This document shows, in pieces, positions 7,479 to 23,419 of a stretch of DNA of 64,000 bases. This DNA is from an uncultured Solirubrobacterales bacterium (GTDB lineage Bacteria; Actinomycetota; Thermoleophilia; Solirubrobacterales; Solirubrobacteraceae). The notes under the pieces are model-generated. The model searched no databases. It was not told the origin of the DNA and saw only the letters and a list, made by a program, of their open reading frames with translations. Position 1 is the first letter of the stretch. The number at the start of each line of letters is the position of its first letter. The stretch lies in NCBI GenBank assembly GCA_963756585.1, contig CAVWOK010000010.1, positions 524-64,523 on the forward strand, in the 5' to 3' direction. Position numbers and translations under genes: made by a program.

Positions 7479-7601
7479 TATGCCTCTCCTTCTTTGCGTT
7501 GGCCAAGCCAACTCGTAAACACTGAATGGGCAGGCGTCCGCTTAACGTCGTCCGCCTCGAGCGATCGGTCGACCAGCGTCCCGCGCGCGGTGCGGCACGG
7601 C

Positions 7602-8080: not shown

Positions 8081-8095
8081 AGCAATCGGCGCTCC

Positions 8096-8974
8096 TTAGC
8101 CGGAGATCTCCAGCCGCGCCTGAGCGATGGCCTCGCGGATGCAGCGGGCGGTGAGCACACGCACGAGTTGACGCTTGTACTCGACCGACCCGTTCGAGTC
8201 GGCCATCGGCTCGGTTTCGGTGGCGGCGACCTCCGCGCAGGCTGAAAGCTCCTCGCTCGATGCGCCGGCCGCGAGTCCCACGAGCGCCTGTTCGGCGCCT
8301 GGGCAGCGCCGTGCCGCCACGCCGACCGAGCCGACCACCAGTCGAGCCTGCTCGAGGCGTTCATCCCGCACCTTCACGTTGGCCGCGACGGTGATCGCCG
8401 GCCGCTCGCGGAACGACATCTTGCGGTGAACGAGCGCCGATCCGGGGGCCGGCTCCGGGACGTGCACACTGACGAGCAGCTCGTCGGGAGCGAGTGCGTT
8501 CTGGTAGGGGCCACGCGTGAATCCCTCGACCGATATCTGCCTTGGCGTGCCTCCGGCGCGCCGGGCCGTGACCCATCCACCAGCCGCGATCAAGTACGTC
8601 GCCGGATCGGAATGTGGATCGGCGAAGCAGAGGTTGCCGCCGAGCGTCCCCACGTTGCGTACCCGGATGTTGCCGACGTGCCGCTCCATCGCCGCCAGCG
8701 ACGGCCAGCGCTCGCGGACCGCGGGTGCGCGCTCGAGCTCGCGATGGGTCGTGGTCGCACCGATGCGAAGCTCACCGTCCACCTCGATCCCGGTCAGCTC
8801 CTCGATGTGCTTGACGTCGATCAGGTCGGTGAAGTCAGTCAATCCAAGCTTTGCCACCAGAAGCAGCTCGGTGCCGCCGCAATACGGCACCGCGGCGGAA
8901 TCTAACTCGGCCAGCAGCTCGCTGGCTTGCTCCAGTGTCTGGGGACAATGCAACCGAAACGGCGCCAGTCTCAC
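8096..8974 (-). CDS. Molybdenum hydroxylase FAD-binding (medium) subunit, CoxM/XdhB-like
   Basis: 'YCGGTELL', 'IRNVGTLGGNLCFADPHSD' and 'GSVEYKRQL'. Confidence 0.92.
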   Translation of the reverse strand: MRLAPFRLHCPQTLEQASELLAELDSAAVPYCGGTELLLVAKLGLTDFTDLIDVKHIEELTGIEVDGELRIGATTTHRELERAPAVRERWPSLAAMERHVGNIRVRNVGTLGGNLCFADPHSDPATYLIAAGGWVTARRAGGTPRQISVEGFTRGPYQNALAPDELLVSVHVPEPAPGSALVHRKMSFRERPAITVAANVKVRDERLEQARLVVGSVGVAARRCPGAEQALVGLAAGASSEELSACAEVAATETEPMADSNGSVEYKRQLVRVLTARCIREAIAQARLEISG

Positions 8975-10167
8975 GACGGCAAACCCGCGAGCAGCGTGGC
9001 TGGATCCTGCGCGAGCACTTCCATCACCGCCTGGGCTCCCCCGCCGATATCGACCGAGACGCCAAGGTCAGACAACCCCCGCCCCAGCGCTGATACCGCG
9101 ACCAGGGGATAGAGCGAGCGGCTCGCGGGACCCATGTGGCCGAGGCGAATCAGCTTCTCCTTCAGATCTCCGTAGCCGCCCGACAACATGACCCCGTAGC
9201 GCTCGCGCACGTGCCCGAGCACGTCACCTACGGTGACTCCGGCGGGAACACGCACGGCGGTCACGCAGCTGGCGGCGTAAGCCTCGTTTCGCGGCCACAG
9301 TTCGAGGCCCAGCGCCCGGATCCCGGCACGGCATGCCCGAGCGGCCCGCGCGTGAGCTGCGATCACGGCATCGAGGCCCTCGTCCAGCGCCTCCTGAAGC
9401 GCGGCGTGGACGCCGTTGAGGTCGCTGACCGATGGCGTGTAGGGAAAGGCAACGCGGCCGCCGTCGATCCAGCGATGCTTCCAGTCGAGCAGCGACAAGA
9501 AGGAGCCTCGCGGGGCGCTTGGGTTTGCCTCCATCGCCTCCCAGGCACGCGGGCTAGCAGTGATCAGCGACACTCCGGGCGGACCGGCCAGGCATTTCTG
9601 GGGACCCGCCACGGCGAGATCGACGTGCCATTCGTCGATCAGCAACCGCGCCCCACCGAGCGATGAAACCACGTCGGCGAGGACCAGCGCCCCGTGCTCG
9701 TACGCGAGCGGTCCGATCTCCGACAGCGGGTTCTCGACCCCGGACGGCGTCTCTGAGTGCACAACCGACACCAGCTCAAACGGACCCTGGGCGTCCAGCG
9801 CCTGCTTGACCACCGCGGGGTCGATCGCCTCGTCGTATGAAACCCGCACCTCGTGAACCTCGGCCCCATAATCACGCAGCCAGTCGCCGAACCAGGAGGC
9901 GTACACGCCGGAGACCAGATTAAGGCAGCGGGTTCCGGGCTTCACCAGCGCCCGGGCGGCGGCCTCCAGTCCGAGCACGGCCTCGCCCTGCATCAGCACT
10001 ACGTCGTTGGTCGTGTTATAGACCTCGGCCAGCATCCGCTCGGTGTCCCGGAAGTGCTCCAAAAAGACCGGGTCGTAATCGAACAGGATCGGCGATCCCA
10101 GGGCTGCGAGCACGCGCGGGGAGGCCATCGTCGGTCCGGCAGTGAGGGTGAAATCTGGTGGGCGCAC
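8971..10167 (-). CDS. ppaT: Pyridoxamine--pyruvate transaminase
   Basis: 'TLTAGP', 'LFDYDPVF', 'GEAVLGLEAAA', 'LNLVSGVY', 'GPQKCLAGPPG', 'FPYTPSVS' and 'RLGHMGP' match M. loti PPAT as recalled. Confidence 0.85.
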   Translation of the reverse strand: MRPPDFTLTAGPTMASPRVLAALGSPILFDYDPVFLEHFRDTERMLAEVYNTTNDVVLMQGEAVLGLEAAARALVKPGTRCLNLVSGVYASWFGDWLRDYGAEVHEVRVSYDEAIDPAVVKQALDAQGPFELVSVVHSETPSGVENPLSEIGPLAYEHGALVLADVVSSLGGARLLIDEWHVDLAVAGPQKCLAGPPGVSLITASPRAWEAMEANPSAPRGSFLSLLDWKHRWIDGGRVAFPYTPSVSDLNGVHAALQEALDEGLDAVIAAHARAARACRAGIRALGLELWPRNEAYAASCVTAVRVPAGVTVGDVLGHVRERYGVMLSGGYGDLKEKLIRLGHMGPASRSLYPLVAVSALGRGLSDLGVSVDIGGGAQAVMEVLAQDPATLLAGLPS

Positions 10168-10212
10168 GGCGGTCCTCCTAGGTGTTCGTGAGCCTCTTCG
10201 GGTCTGTGCGCA

Positions 10213-10707
10213 TCAACCGTAGGTGATGAGCTTGGGGATGCGGCCTGCGTTGTCCGGGCCACATGGGATCGCCGGGTCATCCTCGCTTGTCAAGAGCCGC
10301 TCACCCTGCAGGACCGAGCAATAGGCCTCGACGTGCGGATCGATGCCGAAATCGACGTTGCATCGAACAATCCGGACGCGCTGGAAGCGGCGACCGCTGC
10401 GCACGCAGGCCACCCACTGGTAGTTGAGATGCTGGGCGCGGAGGCGGTGGATGATGGCCGCGCGGACCACGGCCGGGCTGCCGGTGTGGAGGCCGGCGGC
10501 GCTGCCGGTGTGGACGCTGGGAGCATTGCCGGTGTGGACGCCAGTTGGGCTGCCGGTGCTGGCTCGGCCGGGCCCGGCAGGCTTTCCCGCGGCACCGCCC
10601 CCTGAGCTGGCGAGCACAATCCCGGCGGCCGCCAGACACGCGCCAACGATCAACGCCAAGGACCACCGGCGAGCCGCAGGTGCCCGGGCAGCTTGCGTAT
10701 TCATCAT
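10213..10707 (-). CDS. Hypothetical secreted/membrane protein with 8-aa HTG repeats and a 4-Cys C-terminal domain
   Basis: Hydrophobic N-terminal helix, repeats TGSPTGVH/TGNAPSVH/TGSAAGLH/TGSPAVV, and -10-like TATTAT just upstream of ATG 10707. Confidence 0.6.
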   Translation of the reverse strand: MMNTQAARAPAARRWSLALIVGACLAAAGIVLASSGGGAAGKPAGPGRASTGSPTGVHTGNAPSVHTGSAAGLHTGSPAVVRAAIIHRLRAQHLNYQWVACVRSGRRFQRVRIVRCNVDFGIDPHVEAYCSVLQGERLLTSEDDPAIPCGPDNAGRIPKLITYG

Positions 10708-10722
10708 CGCTGATAATACTCT

Positions 10723-10884
10723 TGTTGACAGTTCACAGCCGACGCTTGACCGGACCGGCGCGTGGCCCCCGAGCGCTCCGAGCGCCCAGCGCATCGTTCA
10801 TTAAGACTGGATGGAGCTTGCTTGACGTCGTCATCGAGCCAACTATATGGTCCTGTTGACAGTCCACAGCACACAGCCGACGCT
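10723..10884 (+). promoter_or_regulatory. Divergent promoter region with duplicated operator-like motif TGTTGACAGTYCACAGC
   Basis: Copies at 10723-10746 and 10854-10884. TTGACG(10822)-18 nt-TATGGT promoter lies immediately upstream of the second copy. Confidence 0.6.
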
Positions 10885-10928
10885 AGCCAGCGATGCGCTG
10901 CGTGAGTTTCCACCCAGGAGGAGTTGGG

Positions 10929-12014
10929 ATGCACATCAGCTTTAAGGGACTCGGAGCGGCCCTGGTTGGGCTTGCGCTCATGGGCGGCGTGGCGGCCTGC
11001 GGTTCTAGCAGCTCTACGAGCACGCCCGCAAGCAGCGGGGGTGCTTCGAACGCATCGAGCTCGAAGAAACTGCCCTTCAGCAGCGTGGCCATCGCGACCC
11101 CGGCGAAGACCAACGACTACGGCTGGAACGCGCAGGGCGTCAACGGCATCAAGGAGGCGGCAACACCGTACGGGCTGAACGTCAAAGTGGTCCAGGACAT
11201 CGGCTATGACAACACCACCGCGGTACTGCGTCAGCTGGCCCTGAGCCACCCCGGACTGATCGTCGCGCACGCGAGTGGCTTTGACACCAACGCCCAGCGG
11301 GTCGCGCAGCAATACCACGTGCCGATGATCACCTATGACATCCCGTCGCTGCTGTCCAAGGGAACGCTGTCGAACATCACCACGTCCAGTCAGCAGGGCG
11401 CCTACCTGGCGGGAATTCTCGCGGCGCATACAACCAAGACCAACAAGGTCGGCGTGATCATCTCCGCATCTGACACGAACTGGTACGAGATGACCGGTGG
11501 CTACGCCGCGGGCGTGCACAGCGTCAACCCGAAGATCCAGATCGTGTTCGGCCAGATCGGCCCCGCATCCTACGACGACGCGGCGGGTGGCAAGCGAGTC
11601 GCTACAAGCATGATCGCCTCCGGAGCCGACGTGATCTTCGCGATGGGCGATGACGCCTCGTTCGGCTACCTGCAGGCAATCGGCAGCGCTCACCCTGGTC
11701 ACAAGGTCTGGTACATCGGTGACATCGGCAACATGACACCGATCGACACCAACCACGTGCTGTTGTCCTCGGTGTTGTGGAACTTCGCCGGCGTCTACAA
11801 GCAGGCGCTCCAGGACATCAAGGCGGGCACGTTCGGGACGCATGGTTACAACCTGACGCTGGCAAACGGCGGGATCTCGCTGCTGCACAGCAAGTACATC
11901 CCGGCGAGCGTCTGGGCAAAGATCGTCGCCGCTCAGAAGAAGATCGAGTCGGGCGCGATCAAAGTGCCGCAAACGACCAAGGCGGCACAGGCCCAGGCGG
12001 AACTGAAGGGCTGA
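10929..12014 (+). CDS. BMP-family (nucleoside-type) ABC substrate-binding lipoprotein
   Basis: Lipobox 'VAAC', 'NDYGWNAQG', 'QQGAYLAGILAA' and 'GADVIF'. Confidence 0.9.
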   Translation: MHISFKGLGAALVGLALMGGVAACGSSSSTSTPASSGGASNASSSKKLPFSSVAIATPAKTNDYGWNAQGVNGIKEAATPYGLNVKVVQDIGYDNTTAVLRQLALSHPGLIVAHASGFDTNAQRVAQQYHVPMITYDIPSLLSKGTLSNITTSSQQGAYLAGILAAHTTKTNKVGVIISASDTNWYEMTGGYAAGVHSVNPKIQIVFGQIGPASYDDAAGGKRVATSMIASGADVIFAMGDDASFGYLQAIGSAHPGHKVWYIGDIGNMTPIDTNHVLLSSVLWNFAGVYKQALQDIKAGTFGTHGYNLTLANGGISLLHSKYIPASVWAKIVAAQKKIESGAIKVPQTTKAAQAQAELKG

Positions 12015-12059
12015 GTCACGTCGGAGTCCGCGTCGCCGCTCGCCGAGCCAGATCCGACC

Positions 12060-13658
12060 GTGCCCGCCCGGTCCGATGAGACCTCCGCGGTCGAGCTGCT
12101 CGGGATCACCAAGACATTCCCCGGCGTGGTTGCCAACGACGATGTCTCGTTGGCGCTGCGCCGAGGCGAGGTGCATTGCCTGCTGGGCGAGAACGGGGCC
12201 GGCAAATCCACGCTGATGGCGATTCTGGCGGGGATGCAACAGCCCGATGCCGGGTGCATCCGGGTCGCCGGCGACGAGGTCCGGATCTCTTCCCCCCGGG
12301 TCGCGCTGAAGCTCGGTATCGGCACGGTCTATCAGCACTCGACGCTGATCGGTGCGTTGTCGGTGATCGAGAACCTGATGCTCGGCGACAGCCGGGCCCT
12401 GCGCCTGGACGTTGCGCGAGCGCGTAAACGGCTCGAGGAGTTCGGCTCGATGCTCGGAGTCGAGATCGATCCCGACGCGCGCGCGGGGGACCTCGCGCTC
12501 GGACGTCAGCAACAGGTCGAGATCATCAAGGCCCTGTGGCGGGGCTCGCGGGTGCTGATCCTCGACGAGCCGACATCGATGCTCACCCCACAGGCCGTGG
12601 CCGAGCTCCAGAACGTGCTTCAGCGGCTCAAGCCGACCGGCCTGGCGATCGTGTTCATTACCCATAAGCTGCACGAGGCAGTAGCCCTTGGCGACCGAAT
12701 CTCCGTCCTTCGGCAGGGCCGGGTGACCGGCACCATCGATCACGAGCGTGTTCGCTCGAGTTCACCGGAGGAGCTCGAGGCCGAGATCGTGCGGCTGATG
12801 TTCGGCGAGTCCGAGGCCGTCGCCGAGCTGCCCGAGCTGCAGTTGGAGGCCGAGGGTCATAGACCCGAGACGATCTCGCGCAACGATGATCAGGTAGCGC
12901 TCGAGCTCAGCCACGCCTCCGCGCGCGGCGAAGGCGCGCAGCCCGGGATCGAGGACGTGTCGCTGACCCTGAGGCTTGGCGAGGTACTGGGTGTGGCCGG
13001 CGTCGATGGCAATGGACAGCGCGCTCTGGCCGAGGTGATCAGTGGCCAGCGGCGCCTGACGCATGGCGAGGTGCGCTTTCTCGGCGCGCCGATCGCGTCG
13101 CTCAGCGTCGCCCAGCGCGAGAAGCTCGGTCTTCGCCATGTCACCGACGATCGCCTCGGCGAGGGGATCGTCGCCGGGCTACCGGTGTCGATCAACCTCG
13201 TGCTCAAGCGAATCGGCCACAGCCCGTACTGGCGCCGCGGCACGATCCGTCGGGACGTCATCGATCGCCAGGCCGAGGCGCTGGTGGATCGCTTCGACAT
13301 CCGCACGCCCAGCGTCCACACTCGAGCCGGGACCCTGTCCGGCGGCAATGTCCAGAAGCTGCTGCTCGCCCGCGAGCTGTCCTTCGATGCCAAGGTCGTG
13401 GTGTTCCACAAGCCCACCTACGGTTTGGACCTGAAGACGACCCGCGCCGTTCGCGGCATCATCGGAGGCCTTCGTGAGCGGGGAGCCGCGCTGCTGATCT
13501 CGACTGACCTCGACGAGCTCCTCGAAGTGTCTGATCGGATCGCGGTCCTGTCCCGGGGGCGGATCGTGGGGATCGTCGACAACGGACCGGGCGCGGGCGA
13601 GCAGGTCGGCAGGCTGATGATCGGTGACGTGACGCTCGGCGTGGAGGCGGTTGTATGA
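12060..13658 (+). CDS. Sugar/nucleoside ABC transporter ATP-binding protein (two NBDs)
   Basis: GENGAGKST, LILDEPT, LSGGNVQK and 'LLISTDLDE'. Confidence 0.93.
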   Translation: MPARSDETSAVELLGITKTFPGVVANDDVSLALRRGEVHCLLGENGAGKSTLMAILAGMQQPDAGCIRVAGDEVRISSPRVALKLGIGTVYQHSTLIGALSVIENLMLGDSRALRLDVARARKRLEEFGSMLGVEIDPDARAGDLALGRQQQVEIIKALWRGSRVLILDEPTSMLTPQAVAELQNVLQRLKPTGLAIVFITHKLHEAVALGDRISVLRQGRVTGTIDHERVRSSSPEELEAEIVRLMFGESEAVAELPELQLEAEGHRPETISRNDDQVALELSHASARGEGAQPGIEDVSLTLRLGEVLGVAGVDGNGQRALAEVISGQRRLTHGEVRFLGAPIASLSVAQREKLGLRHVTDDRLGEGIVAGLPVSINLVLKRIGHSPYWRRGTIRRDVIDRQAEALVDRFDIRTPSVHTRAGTLSGGNVQKLLLARELSFDAKVVVFHKPTYGLDLKTTRAVRGIIGGLRERGAALLISTDLDELLEVSDRIAVLSRGRIVGIVDNGPGAGEQVGRLMIGDVTLGVEAVV

Positions 13659-14851
13659 CCGAACCGCTCTCGTTTCGCGCGCATCCGACCGATGTCGTCG
13701 AGGTTGCGCCGCCGCGCACTGACGAGGGTCCCGCGCCGCCGCGCTCGCGCCGCGTGGCCAAGTTCAACGAAGCGTTGATCCGCTCGATCGTGCCGGTGAT
13801 CCTGGCCCTGCTCGCAGGTGCGCTGCTCCTGGCGATCCTCGGGCGCGACCCCGTCACCTTCTACAGCGACATCTGGCAGAACGGAATCCAGCAGGGGTCC
13901 TGGGCCGACAGCGCGATGCTGGCCGCGCCGCTGCTGCTCATCGCGGTTGGCCTAATCGTCATCTTTCGCGCCAACATCTGGAACCTGGGCTACGACGGCC
14001 AGTACCTCCTGGGGGCGGTCCTGATCACCGGGCTGGCGCCCCACCTGCAGCACGAGCCTCTGGTAGTGGCGATGTTGATCCTGTTTGCCGTCTCGGTGGC
14101 CGCGGGCGCGGCCTGGACGCTCATACCCGCGCTGCTGAAGGCGCGCTATGAGACCAACGAGATCATCACCACGCTAATGATGTCGTTCATCGGGGTGGGC
14201 GTCGCGAACATCCTGGTCAAGGGGCCGTTTCAGGATCCCACGGTCAACATTCCGCAGACGCGCGTGATCCCGCTGAACCGGATGCTTCCGTCGATCCCGG
14301 GGACGAGGGTGCACGTGGGGGTGCTCGTGGCCCTGGCGGCGGCACTTATCGCCTACTACGTGTTGACCCGCACGTCCTTTGGGCTGCGCCTGCACGTGCT
14401 CGGGGCCAACCCGCGCGCTGCCGCGCACGTCGGCGTCAACGTCAAGCGCTTGATCATCAACGCGTTTCTGGTCAGCGGAGCGCTGGTCGGATGCGCGGCC
14501 GCCGTCGACATTCTGGGCGTGTGGGGCTACATGAGGGCGAACTGGAATCCCGCCTACGGGGACACCGTGATCCCGTTCGTGTTCCTGGCCCGGCTGAACC
14601 CGATCGCAGTGATCCCGTTCATCGCGTTCTTCGCGGTTCTGACGACCGGTGGCGACATCGCCGCCTCCAACGCCAACCTGCCGACCGACTTCCTGCTCGT
14701 ACTGGTGGCGCTGATCCTGCTGTTCATGACGATCATCGAATACCTCGGTCGTCAGCGGGAAATGGGTCGCAGCTATCTGACCCCGGGGCTCAGACAGGCG
14801 CTGCGTTGGCCGTTGCTCGGTCGCAAGTCAAGCCGGGAGGCGAGCGCGTGA
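13655..14851 (+). CDS. Nucleoside-type ABC permease 1
   Basis: 'IWNLGYDGQY', 'NEIITTLMM' and 'GANPRAA...G'. Confidence 0.9.
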   Translation: MTEPLSFRAHPTDVVEVAPPRTDEGPAPPRSRRVAKFNEALIRSIVPVILALLAGALLLAILGRDPVTFYSDIWQNGIQQGSWADSAMLAAPLLLIAVGLIVIFRANIWNLGYDGQYLLGAVLITGLAPHLQHEPLVVAMLILFAVSVAAGAAWTLIPALLKARYETNEIITTLMMSFIGVGVANILVKGPFQDPTVNIPQTRVIPLNRMLPSIPGTRVHVGVLVALAAALIAYYVLTRTSFGLRLHVLGANPRAAAHVGVNVKRLIINAFLVSGALVGCAAAVDILGVWGYMRANWNPAYGDTVIPFVFLARLNPIAVIPFIAFFAVLTTGGDIAASNANLPTDFLLVLVALILLFMTIIEYLGRQREMGRSYLTPGLRQALRWPLLGRKSSREASA

Positions 14852-15807
14852 TCACACTTCAATTCGCTGCGGCGAGCAACATCTTCAGCCAGGCGGTGCT
14901 GACCTCGCTGATCGCCGGCGGTCTGGTCGCGGGCGTGCCGCTGATGTTCACGGCGCTGGGCGAGACCATCTCCGAGCGCGCCGGGGTTCTCAACCTGGGG
15001 CTCGAGGGAATGATGCTCCTGGGCGCCTATATCGGCTTCATTGGCGCCTACTACGTGCATTCGGAGATGGTCGGTTTCCTGTTCGGGATCGCCGGCGGCA
15101 TGATCGGCGCCTCGCTGATGGTGATCCTGTGCGTATGGCTGGGGCTCGATCAGATCGTCGTCGGGATCGCCATTACGCTTGCCGGTGAGGGGATCACCAG
15201 CGTGCTCCAAGGCGCACAGTTCGGCACCAGCTATCCACGGCTGGGCGCGCCGTCAACCGTATCGATCCCGATCCTGGACAAGATCCCGGTGCTGGGCCCC
15301 AGCCTCTTCAATCAGTCTCTGCTGGTGTACCTGGGATTTGCCTTCGCGGGTTTCCTGGTGTGGATATTTCGGGCCACCAACCTGGGGCTGAACCTGCGCG
15401 CTGCCGGTGAGAAGCCCGAAGCGCTCGACGCCGCCGGGGTCAGTGTGCTCGCCACCCGGAGCTGGGCGGCGCTCAGCACCGGGGCCCTCGCGGGTCTGGG
15501 AGGCGCGTATCTGGCGATCGTGAGCGCAGGCGTGTTCACACCCTTCATGACCCAGGGTCAGGGCTTTATGGCAATCGTGATCGCCATGCTGGCGCGCGGC
15601 AAGCCGCTATGGGTGGTACTGGGGTCGTTCCTGTTTGGAATCTGCCTCTCGATCGCGACCGCGTTGCAGCTCGCTGGGGTGAACATTTCCACTGATCTGG
15701 TCAACATGCTTCCGTTCATCGCGATCATCGTGTCGCTGGTGGTCTTCGCCCGCAAGTCCTACCTCCCGCCGGCGCTCTGCATTCCCTACGTACGCGGAGC
15801 CAAATGA
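14848..15807 (+). CDS. Nucleoside-type ABC permease 2
   Basis: 'LGETISERAGVLNLGLEGMML', 'GEKPEALDAAGV' and 'GQGFMAI'. GTG start overlaps the upstream stop. Confidence 0.9.
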   Translation: MITLQFAAASNIFSQAVLTSLIAGGLVAGVPLMFTALGETISERAGVLNLGLEGMMLLGAYIGFIGAYYVHSEMVGFLFGIAGGMIGASLMVILCVWLGLDQIVVGIAITLAGEGITSVLQGAQFGTSYPRLGAPSTVSIPILDKIPVLGPSLFNQSLLVYLGFAFAGFLVWIFRATNLGLNLRAAGEKPEALDAAGVSVLATRSWAALSTGALAGLGGAYLAIVSAGVFTPFMTQGQGFMAIVIAMLARGKPLWVVLGSFLFGICLSIATALQLAGVNISTDLVNMLPFIAIIVSLVVFARKSYLPPALCIPYVRGAK

Positions 15808-16535
15808 GCGCAGCTCGTCCCGCCACCGACATACCGTTGGAGAACCGCACACTGCGCGAGCAGGTCGCGGATCACCTCCGCGAGGAGATCCTGGCCAGCC
15901 GCCTGGCGCCGGGGACCGAGCTCGGAGAAGTGATGCTGGCCCAGTCGCTCGGGATCAGCCGGGGGCCGCTGCGCGAGGCGCTGGGCCAGCTCGCCGCCGA
16001 AGGGCTAGTGACGATCGTTCCCCGGCGCGGCGCGGTTGTGAAGACCCTCACCCGGCAGGAGTTCCTGGACGCTTATCAGGTCCGCGAGGCGCTCGAATCT
16101 CTGGCCATCAAGCTCGCCGTCCCGCGCCTGAGCAAAAGCCAGCGCGGAGAGCTGCGCCGCATGTGCCGAGAGATGGAGGCCGAGGCGGCGGCAGGCAACA
16201 CCGAGCGGTTCTTCGAGATCAACCACGACTTCCACGCGCTGCTGGTCCAGGCGTCAGGCAACCAGAAGCTCGAAGAGATGCACGCGCAACTGATCGCTCA
16301 GATGGGGCGCCTGCTCAAAAAATCAGTCGAGCTCCGCGGCGGCGTGCAGCAGTCGGCGGCCGAGCATCGAGAGATCCTGGCCGCGGTCGACGCGGGAGAC
16401 CCCGCGGAAGCGTCTCGCTTGCTCGAGGAGCACATCGAGGTCCCCCAAAGGGTCCTGCGCGCAAGCGCAGCGGGTTCGCTGTTCGAGGCCGACGATGCAC
16501 ACCCACAAGACGAGGAGTCGCGCGCCGATGGCTGA
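15804..16535 (+). CDS. GntR (FCD) family transcriptional regulator
   Basis: 'LAQSLGISRGPLREAL' wHTH followed by FCD domain ('NHDFH...SGN', 'AEHREILAA'). Confidence 0.93.
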   Translation: MSAARPATDIPLENRTLREQVADHLREEILASRLAPGTELGEVMLAQSLGISRGPLREALGQLAAEGLVTIVPRRGAVVKTLTRQEFLDAYQVREALESLAIKLAVPRLSKSQRGELRRMCREMEAEAAAGNTERFFEINHDFHALLVQASGNQKLEEMHAQLIAQMGRLLKKSVELRGGVQQSAAEHREILAAVDAGDPAEASRLLEEHIEVPQRVLRASAAGSLFEADDAHPQDEESRADG

Positions 16536-17568
16536 GTCCAAGCCGCTCCAGTTCGGAGTCAACCTCAACAACCGGGAACCGCTTATCGCTCCGGACTATG
16601 ACCTGCAGGCACTGCTGGCGCTTTCCGAGACCGTGGAGGAGCTCGGCTTTGATTCGGTGTGGGTGGGCGACAGCCTGTTCTCCAAACCTCGCTACGAAGC
16701 GATGACGCTGCTCGCGGCGATCTCGCAGCGGACCCGGCAGGTGTCGCTGGGCACAGCCTGCCTGGTCAGCTCGACGCGCAACCCCTTGTACCTGGCGCTG
16801 GAGTGGGCGACCCTGGACACGATCTCCTCAGGTCGCACGATCCTCGGCCCTTGCATGGGTAACCCCGAGCAGGGTGTGCGGCGCGAGTTCGAGGCGCTGG
16901 GCCTGCCGTTCTCCGACCGCGCGACGGTCTTCGAGGAGGGGCTTGAGGTAATCAACGAGCTGTTCCGGACGGGCAAGACCAGCTTCAAGGGCAAGTACTA
17001 CCGCTACGACGAGGTGGCGTTTCACTCCGGTACGGAGATGGCGCCGCTGGGCCCGTTGCAGACTCCCCCGCCGATCTGGATCGTTTCCAATCCTCGGTTG
17101 GTGGGTGACAAGCCGACCGAGAAGATGCGAGCCATCATGGAGCGCGCTTGCGACAGGATCATCCGGCTCGGCGACGGCTGGATGACCTGCTGCCGGGCCG
17201 AGCATCCCGAGGAGCTCACCGAGCAGATCGGCTATCTGCGCCAGGCGGCAGACCGCCACGACCGCGAGTTCGACGACTACACGGTCGCCTACCAGGTGAC
17301 GATGAACATCGGGGAGTCAAAGGAGCAGGCGCGCGCGGACTTCGACGATTACATCTCCAAGTACTACCCCGAGCTCTCGAGGGCGATGGATCTCTCCAAC
17401 TGGGGACCGGTGGGAACTCCGGAGGACATCGCCGAGTGGCTGCGGGAGTTCCGCGAACGAGGCGTGACCCATTTCATCTGCCGCTTTGGAGCGATCGATC
17501 AGTTCGGGCAGGTGCAGCGCTTCGCACGCGAAGTGTTGCCGGCATTTCAGACCCAGGAGGTGAGCTGA
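16528..17568 (+). CDS. Luciferase-like (LLM) flavin-dependent oxidoreductase
   Basis: 'EELGFDSVWVGDSL', 'LDTISSGRTILG', 'PPIWI' and 'RLGDGW'. Confidence 0.9.
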   Translation: MAESKPLQFGVNLNNREPLIAPDYDLQALLALSETVEELGFDSVWVGDSLFSKPRYEAMTLLAAISQRTRQVSLGTACLVSSTRNPLYLALEWATLDTISSGRTILGPCMGNPEQGVRREFEALGLPFSDRATVFEEGLEVINELFRTGKTSFKGKYYRYDEVAFHSGTEMAPLGPLQTPPPIWIVSNPRLVGDKPTEKMRAIMERACDRIIRLGDGWMTCCRAEHPEELTEQIGYLRQAADRHDREFDDYTVAYQVTMNIGESKEQARADFDDYISKYYPELSRAMDLSNWGPVGTPEDIAEWLREFRERGVTHFICRFGAIDQFGQVQRFAREVLPAFQTQEVS

Positions 17569-17571
17569 AAC

Positions 17572-18600
17572 ATGAGCGTGACCGAAGCAGCGCAGACACC
17601 GACCGACGACGCGATTCGGGCAGACGCCGAGCTGGTCGTCGATGTCTGCATGTCAGTCGAGGCCGACGACGTGGTGACGATCATCACCGACGACGACCAC
17701 ACCGACCAGGCGCGTATGGTGGCCGACGTATGCGTCGACCGCGGTGCCTGGCCCGTGGTCATGAACAACGAGACCCAGGTCCGCCGGGGGTTGGCCGACA
17801 CGCTGTTTCCGATGGCCCCGCCTCGCAACCTGCACCAGGCGATGGTGAGCTCGGACGAGATCATCATCATCACCAACCTCGAGTGGGCCAACCGCTTCGC
17901 CCACGTGTCGGCGGTCAAGGAGTCGTGCGGGGCCAACGCCAAGATCGCCTCGGTCGAGCCCGGGATGGGCTCCTGGGGGCTGACCGAAGAGGCGCTGCTG
18001 CGAGCCCAGCGGCGTGCCTGGGACGCGATGGCGGCGCTGGAGGGCGTTGAGAAGGTGCGCGTCACCTCGGCCAGGGGGACCGACTTCACCGTCACGATCA
18101 AGGACCGCCCCGCGCTCGAGGTCGCCTCGATCAAGAAGCGCGGCCAGATGATGGGGCCACTGCCGCTGTGGGCCGAGGTTGCTTTCGCGGCCGTCGAGGA
18201 CAAGACCGTGGGCAGGATGGTCGTCGACGGCGTGATGCTGGGAATCGGGCTGCCCGGCCAGGTCAAGGAGCCGATCACATGGACGATCGAGAACGGTAAA
18301 GCGGACAAGATCGAGGGCGGCGAAGAGGCGCGCCGGCTGCGCGAGGTGGTGGAAGGAGTCGAGAACTCGACCGTGATTGGCGAGTTCGCCTTCGGCGTCA
18401 GCGAGGTGGCTCCGTTCGGGACGCCGTCGGAAAAGGGCCGCGTCGGAACCGTGCACTGCGCGCTGGGCGACAACCACAACGCCTATCCAGGCGGCCAGAA
18501 CGTGTGCACACTGCACCTCGACGGGGTGGTGCTCGATGCCTCGATGCAGATCGTCGACAACGGCCGCTGGATCCTCAAGGACGGCCAATGGGTGCTGTAG
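17572..18600 (+). CDS. M29/aminopeptidase T-fold metallohydrolase
   Basis: 'VRVTSARGTDFT', 'LPLWAEV', 'IGEFAFG', 'SEKGRVGTVHCALG' and 'HLDG' give the E/E/E/H/H/D ligand pattern. Confidence 0.75.
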   Translation: MSVTEAAQTPTDDAIRADAELVVDVCMSVEADDVVTIITDDDHTDQARMVADVCVDRGAWPVVMNNETQVRRGLADTLFPMAPPRNLHQAMVSSDEIIIITNLEWANRFAHVSAVKESCGANAKIASVEPGMGSWGLTEEALLRAQRRAWDAMAALEGVEKVRVTSARGTDFTVTIKDRPALEVASIKKRGQMMGPLPLWAEVAFAAVEDKTVGRMVVDGVMLGIGLPGQVKEPITWTIENGKADKIEGGEEARRLREVVEGVENSTVIGEFAFGVSEVAPFGTPSEKGRVGTVHCALGDNHNAYPGGQNVCTLHLDGVVLDASMQIVDNGRWILKDGQWVL

Positions 18601-18977
18601 ACCGAGAAGCGGTCAAGACCGTCACGCTCGAGGACATCGAGCCGATCCCGCTGCCGGGCGGGAGCTGGAGCCGGATGGTACTCAACAACAAGTCGCTGCG
18701 CGGAAATGGGTCGTCGCTGGGCTATTCGGTGTTCACCCCTGGATGTGTCACTGCGATGGTGTCGCACGAGACCGAAGAGGTGGCATATGTGGTCTCGGGG
18801 TCCGGTGAACTACGTCTCGAAGCTGAATGCGTGCCGTTCGCGGCCGGACAGGGGCTGTTCATCCCCGCCCGGACTTGGCACGCGGTGGCCAACACCGGCG
18901 AGCAGGACGTGATCATGGTGTTCGGGTTCCCGTATCCCGATTACCCGCCGACCGAGCGCAAGGACACCGCGGCGTGA
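18588..18977 (+). CDS. Cupin domain protein
   Basis: 'SHETEEVAYVVSGSG' and 'LFIPARTWHAVANTG' cupin motifs. Confidence 0.85.
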   Translation: MGAVDREAVKTVTLEDIEPIPLPGGSWSRMVLNNKSLRGNGSSLGYSVFTPGCVTAMVSHETEEVAYVVSGSGELRLEAECVPFAAGQGLFIPARTWHAVANTGEQDVIMVFGFPYPDYPPTERKDTAA

Positions 18978-19723
18978 GCTTGTCGGCAACAGCGGGAGGG
19001 CGCCTCACCGGCGAGGACCGACGCCTGGTCCACGACGTGGCCTGGGCGTGCCGGATCCTGGCCATGGTCGGCTATGAGGACCTGACGCTCGGTCATGTCA
19101 GCGCGCGCGGCTCCGATGACCGCACGGTCTACATCAAACGCAAGGGCATCGCACTTGGCGAGGTGACGCCGGCCGATGTGCTGGCAGTAGATCTCGGCGA
19201 TAACACCTCCGGGGGCGGCAACGGGATGCACCTGGAGACCGTGCTCCATACCGAGGTCTACAAGCGCCGCCCGGACGTGCGCAGCGTAGTTCATGGTCAT
19301 CCGGTGTACGCGACCGCGTTCGGCGCCACCGACGCCGAGTTCTCGTTTCTGACCCATGACAGCGTGCTGTTCATAAAGGGCATCTCGACCTATGACGGGG
19401 TGCCTGATCTGATCATGGATCAGCGCCAGGGAGCGCTCGTGGCGGAGGCCCTCGGAGACGGCACGGCGCTGCTGTTGCGCAACCACGGCGTGCTGGTGGC
19501 CGAGCGTGACGTCCGCTGGGCGGTGCTGGCCAGCGCTCTGCTCGAACGTGCCACTCAGATGCAGCTGCTGGCTACCTCGTTCGGTCCGCTGCACCCGATC
19601 CCGGAGCCGATGCTGGAGGGCATACACGCCTCCAAGTACCAGCACGACTTCGCCGTTGAGTACTGGGACGCCTGGATCCGGGAGCTTCGCCGACGCGGGC
19701 GAGCGTTCGAGATGGCGCAATAG
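18974..19723 (+). CDS. Class II aldolase/adducin family protein (candidate HMPDC decarboxylase)
   Basis: 'GHVSAR', 'ETVLHTEVYKRRPDVRSVVHGHP' and 'LLRNHG'. Confidence 0.85.
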   Translation: MSLSATAGGRLTGEDRRLVHDVAWACRILAMVGYEDLTLGHVSARGSDDRTVYIKRKGIALGEVTPADVLAVDLGDNTSGGGNGMHLETVLHTEVYKRRPDVRSVVHGHPVYATAFGATDAEFSFLTHDSVLFIKGISTYDGVPDLIMDQRQGALVAEALGDGTALLLRNHGVLVAERDVRWAVLASALLERATQMQLLATSFGPLHPIPEPMLEGIHASKYQHDFAVEYWDAWIRELRRRGRAFEMAQ

Positions 19724-19728
19724 AGCTG

Positions 19729-20181
19729 ATGGATCTGTGCCTGACCGTCAACGGCCGAGAGGTCCGCGAAAGTATCGAGCCCCAAGAGCTGCTGCTCGAC
19801 TTCCTGCGCGAGCGGCTGCGGCTGACCGGGGCCAAGCGTTCGTGTGACGTCCAGGTCTGCGGGGCCTGCACCGTGCTCGTCGACGGCGGGCCGGTGAGCG
19901 CCTGTAACTATCTGGCGGTCGAGGCCCAAGGACGTGAGGTGCTGACTGTGGAGGGGTTTGCCCAGACGCTCGAGTTCGCGCAGTTCGAGGCGGCGTTCGT
20001 GCGCCACGCGGCGCTCCAGTGCGGGTACTGCACTCCGGGGCTGCTGTTGACCCTCAAGAGCCTGCGCGACACCGGCGAGCTTGCCACCGAGGATGACATT
20101 CGCCACGGGCTCGACGGCAACCTGTGTCGCTGCACCGGGTATCGATCCATACTTGAAGCCGCCCGGGAGATCGCCCGGTGA
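19729..20181 (+). CDS. Molybdenum hydroxylase [2Fe-2S] small subunit (CoxS-like)
   Basis: 'GAKRSCDVQVCGACTV', 'QCGYCTPG' and 'GNLCRCTGY'. Confidence 0.95.
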   Translation: MDLCLTVNGREVRESIEPQELLLDFLRERLRLTGAKRSCDVQVCGACTVLVDGGPVSACNYLAVEAQGREVLTVEGFAQTLEFAQFEAAFVRHAALQCGYCTPGLLLTLKSLRDTGELATEDDIRHGLDGNLCRCTGYRSILEAAREIAR

Positions 20182-22478
20182 CGGTCATCGAGCGGCCCGC
20201 GCTGCGCGAGGTCGGAACTTCGCGACCGCGCAAGGACGCGCGCGAAAAGCTATCGGGCGAGGCTCAGTTCGTGGGCGACATGGAGGTCGCCGGGATGCTG
20301 CACGGCAGCGTCGTGCGCAGCCCGTATGCCCACGCCCTGATTCGCGGCATCGACTCAAGCGCAGCCCTCGAGCGCGACGGAGTCGTTGCCGTGCTGACCA
20401 GCGCCGACCTCCAGGACATCGAGCCCTATTACGGCCACGCCATCAAGGACCGGCCGATCGTGGCGCTGGACCGGGTTCGATTCGCCGGTGAGCCCGTCGC
20501 CGCTGTAGCGGCGGTCGACGAAGCGACCGCCGAGGCGGCGGTGCGCGCGATCGAGGTCGACTACGAGCCGCTGCCGGTGCTGGACACCCTCGATCTGGCC
20601 CTGTCGCCTGGAGCTCCGCGGCTGCACGACCGCCGCCCGCAAATCGGCCTGTTTCACGGCCTCGGAGAGCTCGGCGAGGAGCAGGGCAACATCTGCTACC
20701 GCCACCTGATCTCCGCCGGGGACATCGATCAAGCCCGTGCGGAGGCGTCGATCACGGTGGAGGGGGAGTACCTATTCCCCGCCGTTTACCAGTACGCGAT
20801 GGAGACCCACGCCACGATCGCCCATTACCACGGCGACGGAGTGACCCTGTGGGCCAACTGCCAGCACCCATTCCTTGTCCAGGCCGAGATCGCGGACCTG
20901 TTCGGTCTGGAGATCGGACAGGTCCGGATCATCGTCTCCTACCTGGGCGGCGGCTTCGGCTCGAAGTCCTACACGAAGATCGAACCGCTGACCGTCGCCC
21001 TGGCGCGCAAGGCGGGACGGCCGGTGAGGATCGTCAACCGGGTCGAGGAGTCGATGGTGACTTCGCGCCGCCACGGAATGCGCTGCTGGATGCGCACCAG
21101 CGCTGCGGCCGACGGAAGGTTGCTGGCGCGCGAGGTGAACTTTTGGATGGACACCGGAGCTTATGCCGACAATGGGCCGCGGGTGACGGCCACGGCCGCG
21201 GACGCCGCGCCCGGCCCGTACCGCTTCACAGCTGTCGAGGTGGACGGCAACTGCGTGTACTGCAACACCCCCCCGTCGGGCTCCTACCGCGCATTCGGTG
21301 CCACCCATCTGCAATGGATCGGCGAGTCGCAGCTCGACGAGGTGGCGCGACGGGCGGGCCTCGACCCGTTGGAGCTGCGCCAGCGCAATCTGGTGGTGAC
21401 CGGTGATCCGGTCCGGCCCGACGGCAGCGGCAAGCCGCTCGACGCAGACCTGATCGGCGACGTCGAGCGAGCGGCCTTGGGGGTCGGCTGGGATGAGCCC
21501 AGACGACCATGGGTGGGTCGCGGGGTCAGCGTAGGGTTGCTGGCCGCCGGGGCCCACCCGGTCTCGCGGGCCTCGGTCCGTCTGTGCTCGGATGGGTCGG
21601 CCGACGTGTACGTGGGGACCACCGAGCTTGGACAGGGGCCCCGCACGGTCATGGCTCAGATTGCCGCCGAGGAGATCGGAATCACCAGCGACCTCGTGCG
21701 CGTCCACGGCGCCGACACCCGGTTCACTCCGTACGACCGCTCGACCGGCGCCAGCCGTTCGACGACGATTGCCGGCCTGGCGGTCAAGCGCGCCGCCAAT
21801 GCCGTGGCCGACCGTCTGCGCGAGACGGCGGCCGAGGCGTGGGACGTCGAGCCCGAAGTGGTCGAACTTACGGGCGGGCGGGCTGAGTTCGCCGGCGAGG
21901 AGATCTCATTCGAGGACCTGATCTTTCGACGGTTTGGGTTCCGCGGCGGGGAGATCATCGAAGGCGGCGAGGTCAGGCCCACCGGAGGCGACACCGGGTC
22001 ATACGCGGAGGGCCCGCATTTCTGGGAAGTTTGCGTCGCGGGCGCTGAGGTCGAGGTGGACCCGAACACAGGCGTGGTTACGGTTTTGCGCACGTCGACC
22101 GTCGCCGACGTCGGCAAGGCGATCAACCCGCAGCTTGTCGAGCGCCAGGACGAGGGCGCGACCCTCCAGGGCATCGGCAACGCGCTGTTTGAGGAGATGC
22201 GGTTCGACGGTGGCCAGGTCGTCAACGACAGCCTGCTCGAGTATCGGGTCCCGCGGATCGCCGACCTGCCTCGCGAGATGACCTCGATCATCGTCGAGAA
22301 TGAAGACGGCCCTGGACCGTACGGCGCCAAGGGATGCGGCGAGGGTGCATTTGCGGCGGTGCCCGCGGCCATCGTCTGCGCGCTGGCCGACGCGGGGGTG
22401 CCGATGAATGAGTTGCCGCTGACCCCCGAGCGCGTGTGGCGCCGGATCCAAGAGCTGTCGAAGGTGCCAACCCCCTGA
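20178..22478 (+). CDS. Molybdenum hydroxylase large (MoCo-binding) subunit, xanthine dehydrogenase family
   Basis: 'RSPYAHA', 'AMETH', 'LGGGFGSK', 'YRAFG', 'GTTELGQG' and 'GAKGCGE'. Confidence 0.95.
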   Translation: MTVIERPALREVGTSRPRKDAREKLSGEAQFVGDMEVAGMLHGSVVRSPYAHALIRGIDSSAALERDGVVAVLTSADLQDIEPYYGHAIKDRPIVALDRVRFAGEPVAAVAAVDEATAEAAVRAIEVDYEPLPVLDTLDLALSPGAPRLHDRRPQIGLFHGLGELGEEQGNICYRHLISAGDIDQARAEASITVEGEYLFPAVYQYAMETHATIAHYHGDGVTLWANCQHPFLVQAEIADLFGLEIGQVRIIVSYLGGGFGSKSYTKIEPLTVALARKAGRPVRIVNRVEESMVTSRRHGMRCWMRTSAAADGRLLAREVNFWMDTGAYADNGPRVTATAADAAPGPYRFTAVEVDGNCVYCNTPPSGSYRAFGATHLQWIGESQLDEVARRAGLDPLELRQRNLVVTGDPVRPDGSGKPLDADLIGDVERAALGVGWDEPRRPWVGRGVSVGLLAAGAHPVSRASVRLCSDGSADVYVGTTELGQGPRTVMAQIAAEEIGITSDLVRVHGADTRFTPYDRSTGASRSTTIAGLAVKRAANAVADRLRETAAEAWDVEPEVVELTGGRAEFAGEEISFEDLIFRRFGFRGGEIIEGGEVRPTGGDTGSYAEGPHFWEVCVAGAEVEVDPNTGVVTVLRTSTVADVGKAINPQLVERQDEGATLQGIGNALFEEMRFDGGQVVNDSLLEYRVPRIADLPREMTSIIVENEDGPGPYGAKGCGEGAFAAVPAAIVCALADAGVPMNELPLTPERVWRRIQELSKVPTP

Positions 22479-22492
22479 ACAAGGAAGCGACT

Positions 22493-23419
22493 ATGAGCGT
22501 GAGCGAACCGAGCCGGGCCACAATTCTCGGAACGGGCACGATGGGCCCAGGCATGGGCGCTGTCCTCGCCCGGGCCGGTATGCCGGTGACACTGTTCGAC
22601 GTCAACTCCGAAGCGCTCGACCGCGCCAAAGTCACGGTGGGCATGGTCGAGGGAGTGCTCGACCGGCTCGAGGTCCCAGTGCGTGACGGCGGCGGCCTTG
22701 CCTACGAAACCGATCAGCCGTCGGCACTCGATGGGGCCGAGATCGTGGTCGAGGCGATCCCCGAGCAGATCGAGCTCAAGCGTCAGGTGTTCGCAGAGAT
22801 CGAGGATCAGATCTCTGCCGAGGCGATCATCGCCTCCAACACGTCAGGCATCCCGGTGACCAAGCTCGCCGAGGGACTGAAGCATCCCGAACGGGTGATC
22901 GGCTGGCACTGGTCGAACCCGCCGCATCTGATCCCCATGAACGAGGTGATCCCCGGCGAGCAGACCGCTCCCGAGGTCACGAGCGCGATCGAGGCCCTCA
23001 CCCGGCGGATCGGCTATCACCCGGTGACGCTGAAGAAGGAGGCCCCGGGATTCGTAGAGAATCGGGTGCTGTACGCGATCATGCGCGAGTGCCTGGCGCT
23101 CGTGGATGAGGGCGTGATCGACGTCGAAGGCCTCGACCTGTGCGTGAAATGGGGGATCGGCTACAAGCTCGCGGTGGTGCCGCCGATCCAGCTGCTCGAC
23201 ATGGCCGGGCTGGACATCTACACCAGCGTGGCCAGCTATCTCAACCAGTCGCTCTCAAACGAGACCGGGGTGTCCAGCACGGCGACCGGACTCAAGGAGG
23301 ACGGGCGGCTGGGGATCAAGACCGGCGGGGGCTTCTTCGACTACACGCCAGAGCGAGTCAAGGAGCTTGGACAACAACGGGCTGCGGCCCTGGTGGCCGT
23401 ACGAAAGGCACTGGACTGA
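22493..23419 (+). CDS. 5-formyl-3-hydroxy-2-methylpyridine-4-carboxylate 5-dehydrogenase (3-hydroxyacyl-CoA dehydrogenase family)
   Basis: 'GTMGPGM', 'HWSNPPH', 'PGFVENRVLYA', 'WGIGYKLAV' and 'LLDMAGLDIY' match M. loti FHMPCDH as recalled. Confidence 0.82.
   Translation: MSVSEPSRATILGTGTMGPGMGAVLARAGMPVTLFDVNSEALDRAKVTVGMVEGVLDRLEVPVRDGGGLAYETDQPSALDGAEIVVEAIPEQIELKRQVFAEIEDQISAEAIIASNTSGIPVTKLAEGLKHPERVIGWHWSNPPHLIPMNEVIPGEQTAPEVTSAIEALTRRIGYHPVTLKKEAPGFVENRVLYAIMRECLALVDEGVIDVEGLDLCVKWGIGYKLAVVPPIQLLDMAGLDIYTSVASYLNQSLSNETGVSSTATGLKEDGRLGIKTGGGFFDYTPERVKELGQQRAAALVAVRKALD

Follow-up and report, generated by a model that had tools for sequence, protein, structure and literature searches.

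The window analysed here is a 64,000-nucleotide stretch of DNA from an uncultured Solirubrobacterales bacterium (GenBank assembly GCA_963756585.1, contig CAVWOK010000010.1, positions 524 to 64,523). It contains a vitamin B6 catabolic gene cluster in which genes for a FAD, a 2Fe-2S and a molybdopterin-binding subunit of molybdenum hydroxylase type are distributed over two divergent operons. By their domains, cofactor motifs and catalytic motifs the three genes specify an intact enzyme of the xanthine oxidase family, and comparison with related loci makes it very probable that the three products form one enzyme. This enzyme probably belongs to a variant B6 catabolic pathway of soil Thermoleophilia, Gaiellales and Chloroflexota. 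With moderate confidence we predict that it hydroxylates C6 of a 3-hydroxypyridine intermediate of B6 breakdown before the ring is opened.

The molybdenum hydroxylase genes

The three subunit genes are the following.

8096-8974, minus strand: FAD-binding (medium) subunit, 292 amino acids, GTG start, last gene of the leftward operon
19729-20181, plus strand: 2Fe-2S (small) subunit, 150 amino acids, Pfam Fer2 and Fer2_2 (E 1.5e-24)
20178-22478, plus strand: molybdopterin-binding (large) subunit, 766 amino acids, GTG start

All three open reading frames (ORFs) given in the initial annotation exist and their domains were confirmed. The FAD subunit matched Pfam FAD_binding_5 (PF00941, E 2.6e-41) and CO_deh_flav_C (PF03450, E 1.3e-13), and contains both the GGTELL and the TLGGNL motif. 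Its GTG start shares the tetranucleotide GTGA with the stop codon of a class-V aminotransferase gene (8971-10167), in agreement with the coupling to a transaminase gene (ppaT) proposed initially. The GTG start of the large-subunit gene overlaps the stop of the 2Fe-2S gene in the same manner. In the 2Fe-2S subunit all eight cluster cysteines are present in two motifs (Cys39/44/47/59 and Cys98/101/133/135), as expected for the two [2Fe-2S] clusters of a small subunit of the xanthine oxidase family. The large subunit carries, between residues 26 and 698, the a/b-hammerhead domain (Ald_Xan_dh_C, PF01315) followed by MoCoBD_1 (PF02738, E 3.8e-68) and MoCoBD_2 (PF20256, E 8.3e-66). Near its C-terminus Glu722 (in GAKGCGEGAF) aligned with Glu743, the catalytic residue of quinoline 2-oxidoreductase, and with the equivalent Glu of KdhL, nicotinate dehydrogenase (NdhM), CoxL and HcrA.

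The FAD gene and the 2Fe-2S gene lie in divergent operons, 10.75 kb apart (previously given as about 11 kb). Scans of the source genome found a single gene for each of the FAD, 2Fe-2S and large subunits on this contig, which agrees with the earlier statement that the window holds no other molybdenum hydroxylase partners. In this family a sulfurated Mo cofactor is put in place by an XdhC-type chaperone; no XdhC gene was found in the window, and two are present elsewhere in the genome.

Evidence that the three genes encode one enzyme

The source genome (5.29 Mb, 27 contigs, 92% complete) contains eight FAD, eight 2Fe-2S and ten large-subunit genes. The possibility, mentioned in the initial annotation, that the FAD subunit belongs to another complex encoded elsewhere was not borne out: each of the other seven FAD genes adjoins a large-subunit gene of its own.

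Related loci (80 in number) were gathered with the NicX/M29-fold protein of the cluster as query. The core order regulator-LLM-M29-cupin-decarboxylase-FeS-Mo (LLM, luciferase-like oxidoreductase) was conserved in Thermoleophilia, Gaiellales and Chloroflexota. The FAD gene was found on the divergent strand in 28 Actinomycetota loci, in nearly all of them beside the transaminase gene. In at least ten Chloroflexota loci the decarboxylase, FAD, FeS and large-subunit genes were contiguous. Phylogenetic trees gave a congruent picture. The FAD genes of these loci formed one clade (SH-aLRT 95), with the paralogues from the same genome outside, and the large subunits formed a clade (support 99) with the same split between Chloroflexota and Actinomycetota as in the FAD tree. 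The FAD gene of the window is an orthologue of the one located inside the Chloroflexota clusters, and the view of it as a stray paralogue was rejected for this reason.

The distribution of the genes among genomes pointed in the same direction. In five genomes where the FAD gene lay beyond the fetched locus, an orthologue (48-68% identity) was located on the same contig at a distance of 0.4-28 kb, and in two of the five it was still paired with the transaminase gene. A class-wide sample revealed a large-subunit orthologue in only three of 150 other genomes; all three had the FAD orthologue, and in the two of these assemblies with both genes on one contig the distance between them was 9-11 kb. 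Two genomes of the same genus that lack the large subunit had FAD matches at the level of paralogues only. Thus the FAD orthologue was present in all eight other genomes tested that carry the large-subunit orthologue. The cluster has a patchy distribution, and four genomes of the same genus yielded no large-subunit orthologue. Taken together, synteny, congruent trees and presence/absence strongly support the proposal that a single three-subunit enzyme is encoded across the divergent operons.

Two large-subunit genes of the genome (contig 8, around 190 kb, and contig 11, around 128 kb) stand without neighbouring Fe-S or FAD genes. These orphan subunits could share the FAD and Fe-S subunits of the cluster, which would tell against a dedicated enzyme. 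However, since the orphans are also without a 2Fe-2S subunit, they would still be incomplete if given a spare FAD subunit; moreover, FAD phylogeny, synteny and presence/absence track the large subunit of the cluster in every genome examined. We therefore regard it as very improbable that the FAD subunit serves, or also serves, the orphans. The contig 8 orphan (761 amino acids, 34% identical to the large subunit of the cluster) is encoded at the beginning of a gene group on the minus strand (4015-8976 in the 183000-196000 segment); it is followed by an alpha/beta-hydrolase gene and then by a gene for a class-A FAD monooxygenase-cupin fusion.

If the three-subunit assignment is true, it calls for caution in annotation: the third subunit of a seemingly FAD-less two-subunit enzyme may be encoded in a separate operon, at a distance of up to about 28 kb.

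Family placement of the large subunit

The large subunit was placed by ranking solved structures, by the scores of curated models and by a tree that included plasmid genes annotated from their context. The closest solved large subunits were HcrA (325 bits) and KdhL (274 bits), both matching over the full length, followed by CoxL-type subunits and Qor. All four ranked above the xanthine dehydrogenases and the aldehyde oxidoreductases (PaoC, MOP and AOX).

Models of well-known subfamilies gave scores below their cut-offs. For aerobic CO dehydrogenase (CoxL form I) the score was 275 against a cut-off of 991 (TIGR02416), and the segment at the position of the CoxL loop reads SYRAFGATH, lacking the Cys of VAYRCSFR, which we take to be the active-site loop of CoxL form I. 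Against the xanthine dehydrogenase models (XdhA/PucD/XdhB types) the best scores were 448, 438 and 284, with cut-offs of 780, 784 and 850, respectively. The residue after GGGFGSK is Ser in the large subunit; in xanthine dehydrogenases this position is presumably occupied by the substrate-binding Glu. The 4-hydroxybenzoyl-CoA reductase models scored 459 versus 995 (alpha), 73 versus 405 (beta) and 140 versus 258 (gamma). The match of the FAD subunit to the HcrB model spans only model positions 2-116 of 321, and the subunit appears to lack the extra Fe-S insertion of HcrB.

Two sister branches were seen in the tree. One is a plasmid-borne four-component enzyme of Variovorax with an SRPBCC subunit, encoded in an N-heterocycle cluster next to genes for a NicC-like monooxygenase and an isochorismatase. 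The other belongs to a plasmid-borne cluster of Thermomicrobium roseum with PEP-utilising neighbours, resembling the 3hpd (3-hydroxypyridine degradation) cluster; its large subunit is a near outgroup with 39% identity to that of the window.

The vitamin B6 gene cluster

The cluster consists of two diverging arms, a leftward transaminase-FAD gene pair and a rightward, tightly packed run of genes. Besides the three subunit genes it comprises the following features.

8971-10167, minus strand: class-V aminotransferase, probable pyridoxamine-pyruvate transaminase; top NCBIfam match NF046070, 434 bits (below the cut-off of 600)
10720-10884, no strand assigned: divergent control region with two direct copies (10720-10746 and 10851-10884) of a 27-34 nt motif containing TTGACA
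10893-15807, plus strand: Bmp/PnrA-type ABC importer (binding protein, ATPase, two permeases) by Pfam; opens the rightward operon
15804-16535, plus strand: GntR/FCD-family regulator; Pfam GntR and FCD
16495-17568, plus strand: LLM oxidoreductase, probably F420-dependent; Pfam Bac_luciferase
17572-18600, plus strand: NicX/M29-fold metalloenzyme, 342 amino acids; partial match to Pfam Peptidase_M29
18597-18977, plus strand: small cupin; Pfam Cupin_2, E 7e-14; start uncertain, ORF listed from 18504
18827-19723, plus strand: class II aldolase-family protein, probable pyridine-dicarboxylate decarboxylase; Pfam Aldolase_II; true start probably about 18974
22436-23419, plus strand: FHMPC dehydrogenase-like protein of the 3-hydroxyacyl-CoA dehydrogenase family; top NCBIfam match NF042925, 408 bits (below the cut-off of 500)
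23423-24214, plus strand: 4-pyridoxolactonase; NCBIfam NF047925, 357 bits (above the cut-off of 325)
24211-24942, plus strand: SDR-type pyridoxal 4-dehydrogenase; NCBIfam NF047923, 370 bits (above the cut-off of 325)
25271-26374, plus strand: Zn-dependent alcohol dehydrogenase; Pfam ADH_N and ADH_zinc_N

The gene cluster is vitamin B6 catabolic. The complete upper-pathway set (transaminase, pyridoxal 4-dehydrogenase, lactonase, FHMPC dehydrogenase) is represented, two members by scores above the NCBIfam cut-offs and two by clear top matches below them, and the side-chain oxidation steps match the pathway of Pseudomonas MA-1 and Mesorhizobium loti (PMC3538738, PMC6253932). The FHMPC dehydrogenase orthologues are 306 amino acids long, so the start of this gene was placed near 22499. 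When a large protein collection was searched with this protein, only near-orthologues from soil metagenomes were listed. The decarboxylase gave only a distant match to Mlr6791 of M. loti (2z7b, E 1.4e-15). The Zn-dependent alcohol dehydrogenase reached no NCBIfam equivalog; it is kept at the operon end in Actinomycetota loci and is a candidate for oxidation of the 5-hydroxymethyl group of 4-pyridoxate, or for conversion of pyridoxine to pyridoxal.

Other parts of the cluster are conserved as well. Relatives retain the transaminase-FAD gene pair and, in either orientation, the Bmp-type importer, and the GntR/FCD regulator heads the core module in most of the 80 related loci. The copies of the control-region motif (TCYTGTTGACAGTYCACAGC...ACAGCCGACGCT) are 131-138 bp apart; the window contains two, against 0.25 expected by chance. 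The first copy falls inside a 193-codon ORF (10213-10794), which has no Pfam match, is conserved in the closest relatives only and may not be a gene.

Predicted role in ring hydroxylation

For the substrate, the position of attack, the order of the steps and the electron acceptor we infer the following scheme. The upper route would run as known, from pyridoxamine through pyridoxal, 4-pyridoxolactone, 4-pyridoxate and FHMPC to the 4,5-dicarboxylate, which would be decarboxylated to 3-hydroxy-2-methylpyridine-5-carboxylate (MHPC). The molybdenum enzyme would then hydroxylate MHPC at C6, the sole free ring carbon and adjacent to the nitrogen, with water as the source of oxygen; the two Fe-S clusters and then FAD would relay the electrons from Mo to a further acceptor. 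The product would be a 2-pyridone, a compound of the 2,5-dihydroxypyridine type. For the opening of its ring two mechanisms are proposed: cleavage by an Fe(II) dioxygenase, for which the NicX/M29-fold protein and the cupin are candidates, or reduction of the ring by the F420-type LLM enzyme followed by hydrolysis of the ring amide by the M29-fold metalloenzyme.

Enzymes of the molybdenum hydroxylase family typically attack the carbon next to the nitrogen, as in nicotinate, picolinate and quinoline, and the B6 intermediates have a single free ring carbon, C6, beside the nitrogen. A chemical precedent is provided by HpdA, which converts 3-hydroxypyridine to 2,5-dihydroxypyridine (bioRxiv 10.1101/2020.01.08.898148). 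Action on the ring is also suggested by the NicX-like fold of the M29-type protein, by the ranking of the ring-acting enzymes HcrA, KdhL, CoxL and Qor ahead of the aldehyde oxidoreductases, and by the N-heterocycle and 3hpd-like sister branches in the large-subunit tree. The aldehyde steps of the pathway are covered because pyridoxal 4-dehydrogenase, lactonase and FHMPC dehydrogenase are already encoded in the cluster. The genes for side-chain oxidation are not constant companions of the molybdenum enzyme: in Chloroflexota loci without transaminase, pyridoxal dehydrogenase and a clear lactonase, the molybdenum hydroxylase genes stay with those for LLM, NicX/M29-fold protein, cupin and decarboxylase. 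No orthologue of MHPC oxygenase was found in the window, in the 80 related loci or among the class-A monooxygenases of the genome (92% complete), the best of whose four candidates scored only 52 bits against the MHPC oxygenase structures. Therefore the ring-opening chemistry must come from other enzymes. Of the functions offered by the initial annotation, the context favours hydroxylation of C6 before ring cleavage over oxidation of pyridoxal or FHMPC, as the latter steps have dedicated enzymes.

Candidates for ring opening

The molybdenum enzyme was always accompanied by a lower module consisting of the LLM enzyme, the NicX/M29-fold metalloenzyme, the cupin and the class II aldolase-type decarboxylase. 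The NicX/M29-fold protein is 66-93% identical across two phyla. An AlphaFold (AF2) model of this protein (pLDDT 84) had NicX (7cn3) as the top fold match (TM 0.73, E 1e-20), with M29 peptidases next, and NicX also ranked first in a profile search (E 0.0015). The BLASTP, PDB-profile and hhalign alignments to NicX end before the C-terminal metal site. The protein is a candidate ring-cleaving dioxygenase or amide hydrolase. The cupin, which is kept in relatives at 54-85%, could also be the dioxygenase. No NCBIfam model matched either of these two proteins. The top NCBIfam matches of the LLM enzyme were F420-dependent LLM subfamilies, all under the cut-off; CofD, a protein of F420 synthesis, is encoded in the genome.

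By analogy, a third, oxygenase-free route of B6 ring opening can tentatively be considered, in which C6 would be hydroxylated by the molybdenum enzyme, the pyridone reduced by the LLM enzyme and the cyclic amide hydrolysed by the M29-fold protein. Such a route, if true, would be a counterpart of nicotinate fermentation in Eubacterium barkeri, and it would account for the restriction of the cluster, as seen here, to Actinomycetota and Chloroflexota, both of which make F420.

A different transaminase-centred cluster was noticed on a Rhizobium daejeonense plasmid (NZ_CP048425.1, 113770-154939). It includes a gene annotated as 2,5-dihydroxypyridine 5,6-dioxygenase together with a lactonase-like gene, SDRs, a Bmp-type ABC importer, a GntR regulator, an HpaB-type monooxygenase with flavin reductase, two amidases and a GMC oxidoreductase. 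Its annotated dioxygenase suggests that B6 degradation has dihydroxypyridine-type endings elsewhere, and the plasmid cluster may represent another undescribed B6-type route.

Alternative functions

Several points weigh against C6 hydroxylation as proposed here. The large subunit is under the cut-off of every curated NCBIfam equivalog, and its tree was anchored only on plasmid genes annotated from their context. Hydroxylation could instead be carried out by the LLM enzyme. The NicX/M29-fold protein is only 16% identical to NicX and appears to retain the Glu/Glu/His/His/Asp pattern of M29 peptidases; the iron-ligand pattern of NicX is His/Ser/His/Asp (PMC7910607). Because of the peptidase-type ligands in place of those of NicX, this protein may be an amide hydrolase. 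Other points concern the reaction catalysed by the molybdenum enzyme and lead to the alternatives below.

The main alternative is an aldehyde oxidoreductase, which would oxidise pyridoxal directly to 4-pyridoxate, like animal aldehyde oxidase, or FHMPC to the dicarboxylate. Aromatic aldehydes are commonly oxidised by the xanthine oxidase family, and the molybdenum hydroxylase genes are directly upstream of the FHMPC dehydrogenase gene. In some Chloroflexota loci that have no pyridoxal dehydrogenase and no clear lactonase or FHMPC dehydrogenase the molybdenum enzyme is kept, possibly as a stand-in. Animal molybdenum enzymes are known to oxidise pyridoxal to 4-pyridoxate, a compound for whose formation the pyridoxal oxidase reaction (EC 1.2.3.8) is an accepted route (PMC6253932). 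However, NAD-dependent enzymes for both aldehyde steps are encoded alongside in the window and in most Actinomycetota loci, which would make this role redundant; the large subunit is closer to ring-acting enzymes than to PaoC, MOP and AOX; and the ring-opening step would be left without a hydroxylase. An aldehyde oxidoreductase is thus considered unlikely.

Alternatively, the molybdenum enzyme could replace the membrane-bound GMC-type 4-pyridoxate dehydrogenase and convert 4-pyridoxate to FHMPC or to the dicarboxylate. This is suggested by the position of the molybdenum hydroxylase genes between the decarboxylase and FHMPC dehydrogenase genes, where we take the 4-pyridoxate dehydrogenase gene of M. 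loti (mlr6792) to be situated; by comparison with that gene order, the position could mark the 4-pyridoxate dehydrogenase step instead. In addition, the conserved cluster has no intact GMC oxidoreductase: the GMC gene close by (27049-28550) carries a frameshift and lacks a syntenic counterpart in relatives. By established enzymology, however, the xanthine oxidase family is not known to oxidise sp3 hydroxymethyl carbons, and the step could more simply be assigned to the Zn-dependent alcohol dehydrogenase conserved at the end of the operon. We regard this replacement as highly doubtful.

Finally, the core module (regulator, LLM, NicX/M29-fold protein, cupin, decarboxylase and molybdenum enzyme) might degrade another pyridine or N-heterocyclic carboxylate and merely lie beside B6 genes. 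In Chloroflexota the core occurs with a Liv-type transporter and CoxG, in loci without transaminase, pyridoxal dehydrogenase and clear lactonase, and the decarboxylase is only distantly akin to the M. loti enzyme. Against this, core and B6 genes of Actinomycetota are joined in a tight operon pair with overlapping stops and starts and a shared control region, the FAD gene is translationally coupled to the transaminase gene, and an FHMPC dehydrogenase-like gene follows the molybdenum hydroxylase genes in several Chloroflexota loci, too. A substrate unrelated to B6 is therefore judged improbable, and hydroxylation of C6 is retained as the preferred function.

Neighbouring sequences

The Zn-dependent alcohol dehydrogenase gene is followed by a segment (26387-31000) with a second SDR gene, the GMC oxidoreductase gene, PfkB fragments and the start of a class-III aminotransferase gene. 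This segment recurs on contig 12 (36 kb; 30232-34843, 99.8% nucleotide identity) and on contig 8 (89045-91754, 85.6%); the recurrence may be a real duplication or may reflect strain heterogeneity in the assembly. In the GMC oxidoreductase gene (27049-28550) the N-terminal half is in frame 1 and the C-terminal half in frame 2, the shift being located near 27780 (...WPEAQRHG / ATRVITGARV...). The same 7-nt offset is seen in both further copies, on contig 12 and on contig 8. For the latter copy the identity is 88-93% at the protein level but only 86% at the DNA level, so that both halves look selected. The frame switch could stem from a systematic sequencing error near a GATC, from recoding or from a natural split. 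Contig 12 also carries a second copy of 4-pyridoxolactonase (34859-35736, 88% protein identity), directly before the duplicated SDR-GMC segment; genes for pyridoxal dehydrogenase and alcohol dehydrogenase do not intervene there.

On the other side, downstream of the FAD gene and past a 585-nt spacer of lower GC content, there is an operon for an Opp-type ABC importer (787-7511). It ends with a second class-V aminotransferase gene, whose product is 40% identical to the transaminase of the cluster. Farther to the right a Fic-domain gene is located at 33950-35248. In the region 35919-43994 genes for DUF2397 and DUF2398 proteins are followed by a 1525-codon ORF, a set that fits a Wadjet (JetABCD) anti-plasmid system.

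Significance

In the searchable literature no account of a molybdenum hydroxylase in bacterial B6 catabolism was found. To our knowledge, descriptions exist for only two bacterial routes of B6 destruction, each of which relies on flavin or iron oxygenases for ring opening. If the predicted function is true, a molybdenum-dependent route would be added to B6 degradation, the xanthine oxidase family would gain a new class of substrate (an intermediate of a B vitamin), and the highly conserved NicX/M29-fold protein would be given its first physiological context. The prediction would also bear on vitamin turnover in soil. Among Thermoleophilia, Gaiellales and Chloroflexota of soil, the proteins of the cluster share 60-90% identity, and soil metagenomes contain close homologues of its genes in very large numbers.

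Comparison with known systems

The molybdenum enzyme has the same three-subunit architecture as KdhLMS (6-hydroxypseudooxynicotine dehydrogenase, 7dqx) and HcrABC (1rm6), although the substrates of these enzymes are unrelated to B6. Animal aldehyde oxidase, in its capacity as pyridoxal oxidase (EC 1.2.3.8), belongs to the same molybdenum hydroxylase superfamily and acts on a B6 vitamer (PMC6253932). It is made of one fused chain, however, has an aldehyde as its substrate and ranked among the weakest matches (about 165 bits).

Like the enzyme described here, HpdA1A2A3A4 of Ensifer adhaerens HP1, encoded in the 3hpd cluster, is a molybdenum enzyme of the xanthine oxidase family, and it hydroxylates 3-hydroxypyridine beside the nitrogen. 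The 2,5-dihydroxypyridine formed is opened by a NicX-type dioxygenase, and the 3hpd cluster contains a GntR regulator and an ABC transporter (bioRxiv 10.1101/2020.01.08.898148). The split gene arrangement is ordinary, and less remarkable than the initial annotation implied, since HpdA subunit genes have already been reported as non-contiguous in Actinobacteria (same reference). HpdA differs in having a fourth, separate SRPBCC component and PEP-utilising partners, neither of which is present in this window. No CoxG/SRPBCC gene was detected in the window by tblastn and no such Pfam domains were found in the cluster, so the four-component composition of HpdA is lacking. Moreover, the proposed substrate bears methyl and carboxyl groups, and the downstream genes are not the maleamate-pathway set. 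The enzyme of the cluster may thus work like HpdA without being a member of that group. In one Chloroflexota locus (L069) a CoxG/SRPBCC gene (17012-17494 of the locus) lies after the FHMPC dehydrogenase-like gene, and a Liv-type (Peripla_BP_6) ABC importer (1791-7702) takes the place of the Bmp type.

In the nicotinate route of Eubacterium barkeri a molybdenum hydroxylase attacks the carbon beside the nitrogen with water, and the ring is opened without O2 by reduction and amide hydrolysis. The segment with the catalytic Glu aligns with that of nicotinate dehydrogenase. However, the large subunit is split in E. barkeri and the enzyme uses selenium, the similarity is modest (189 and 148 bits), and the E. 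barkeri reductase and enamidase belong to families other than those of the LLM and M29-fold proteins.

With B6 degradation pathway I of M. loti and Pseudomonas MA-1 the cluster shares the transaminase, the SDR pyridoxal 4-dehydrogenase, the lactonase, the FHMPC dehydrogenase, the class II aldolase-type decarboxylase and the GntR regulator. The plasmid records searched with the transaminase, the FHMPC dehydrogenase and the pyridoxal dehydrogenase yielded no cluster of the M. loti type. Unlike in pathway I, MHPC oxygenase, the alpha/beta-hydrolase and a syntenic GMC-type 4-pyridoxate dehydrogenase are missing from the cluster; for the hydrolase (AAMS amidohydrolase type) this refers to the Pfam matches in the cluster, to which the search was confined. 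In their place the cluster encodes the molybdenum hydroxylase, the LLM enzyme, the NicX/M29-fold protein, the cupin and the Zn-dependent alcohol dehydrogenase.

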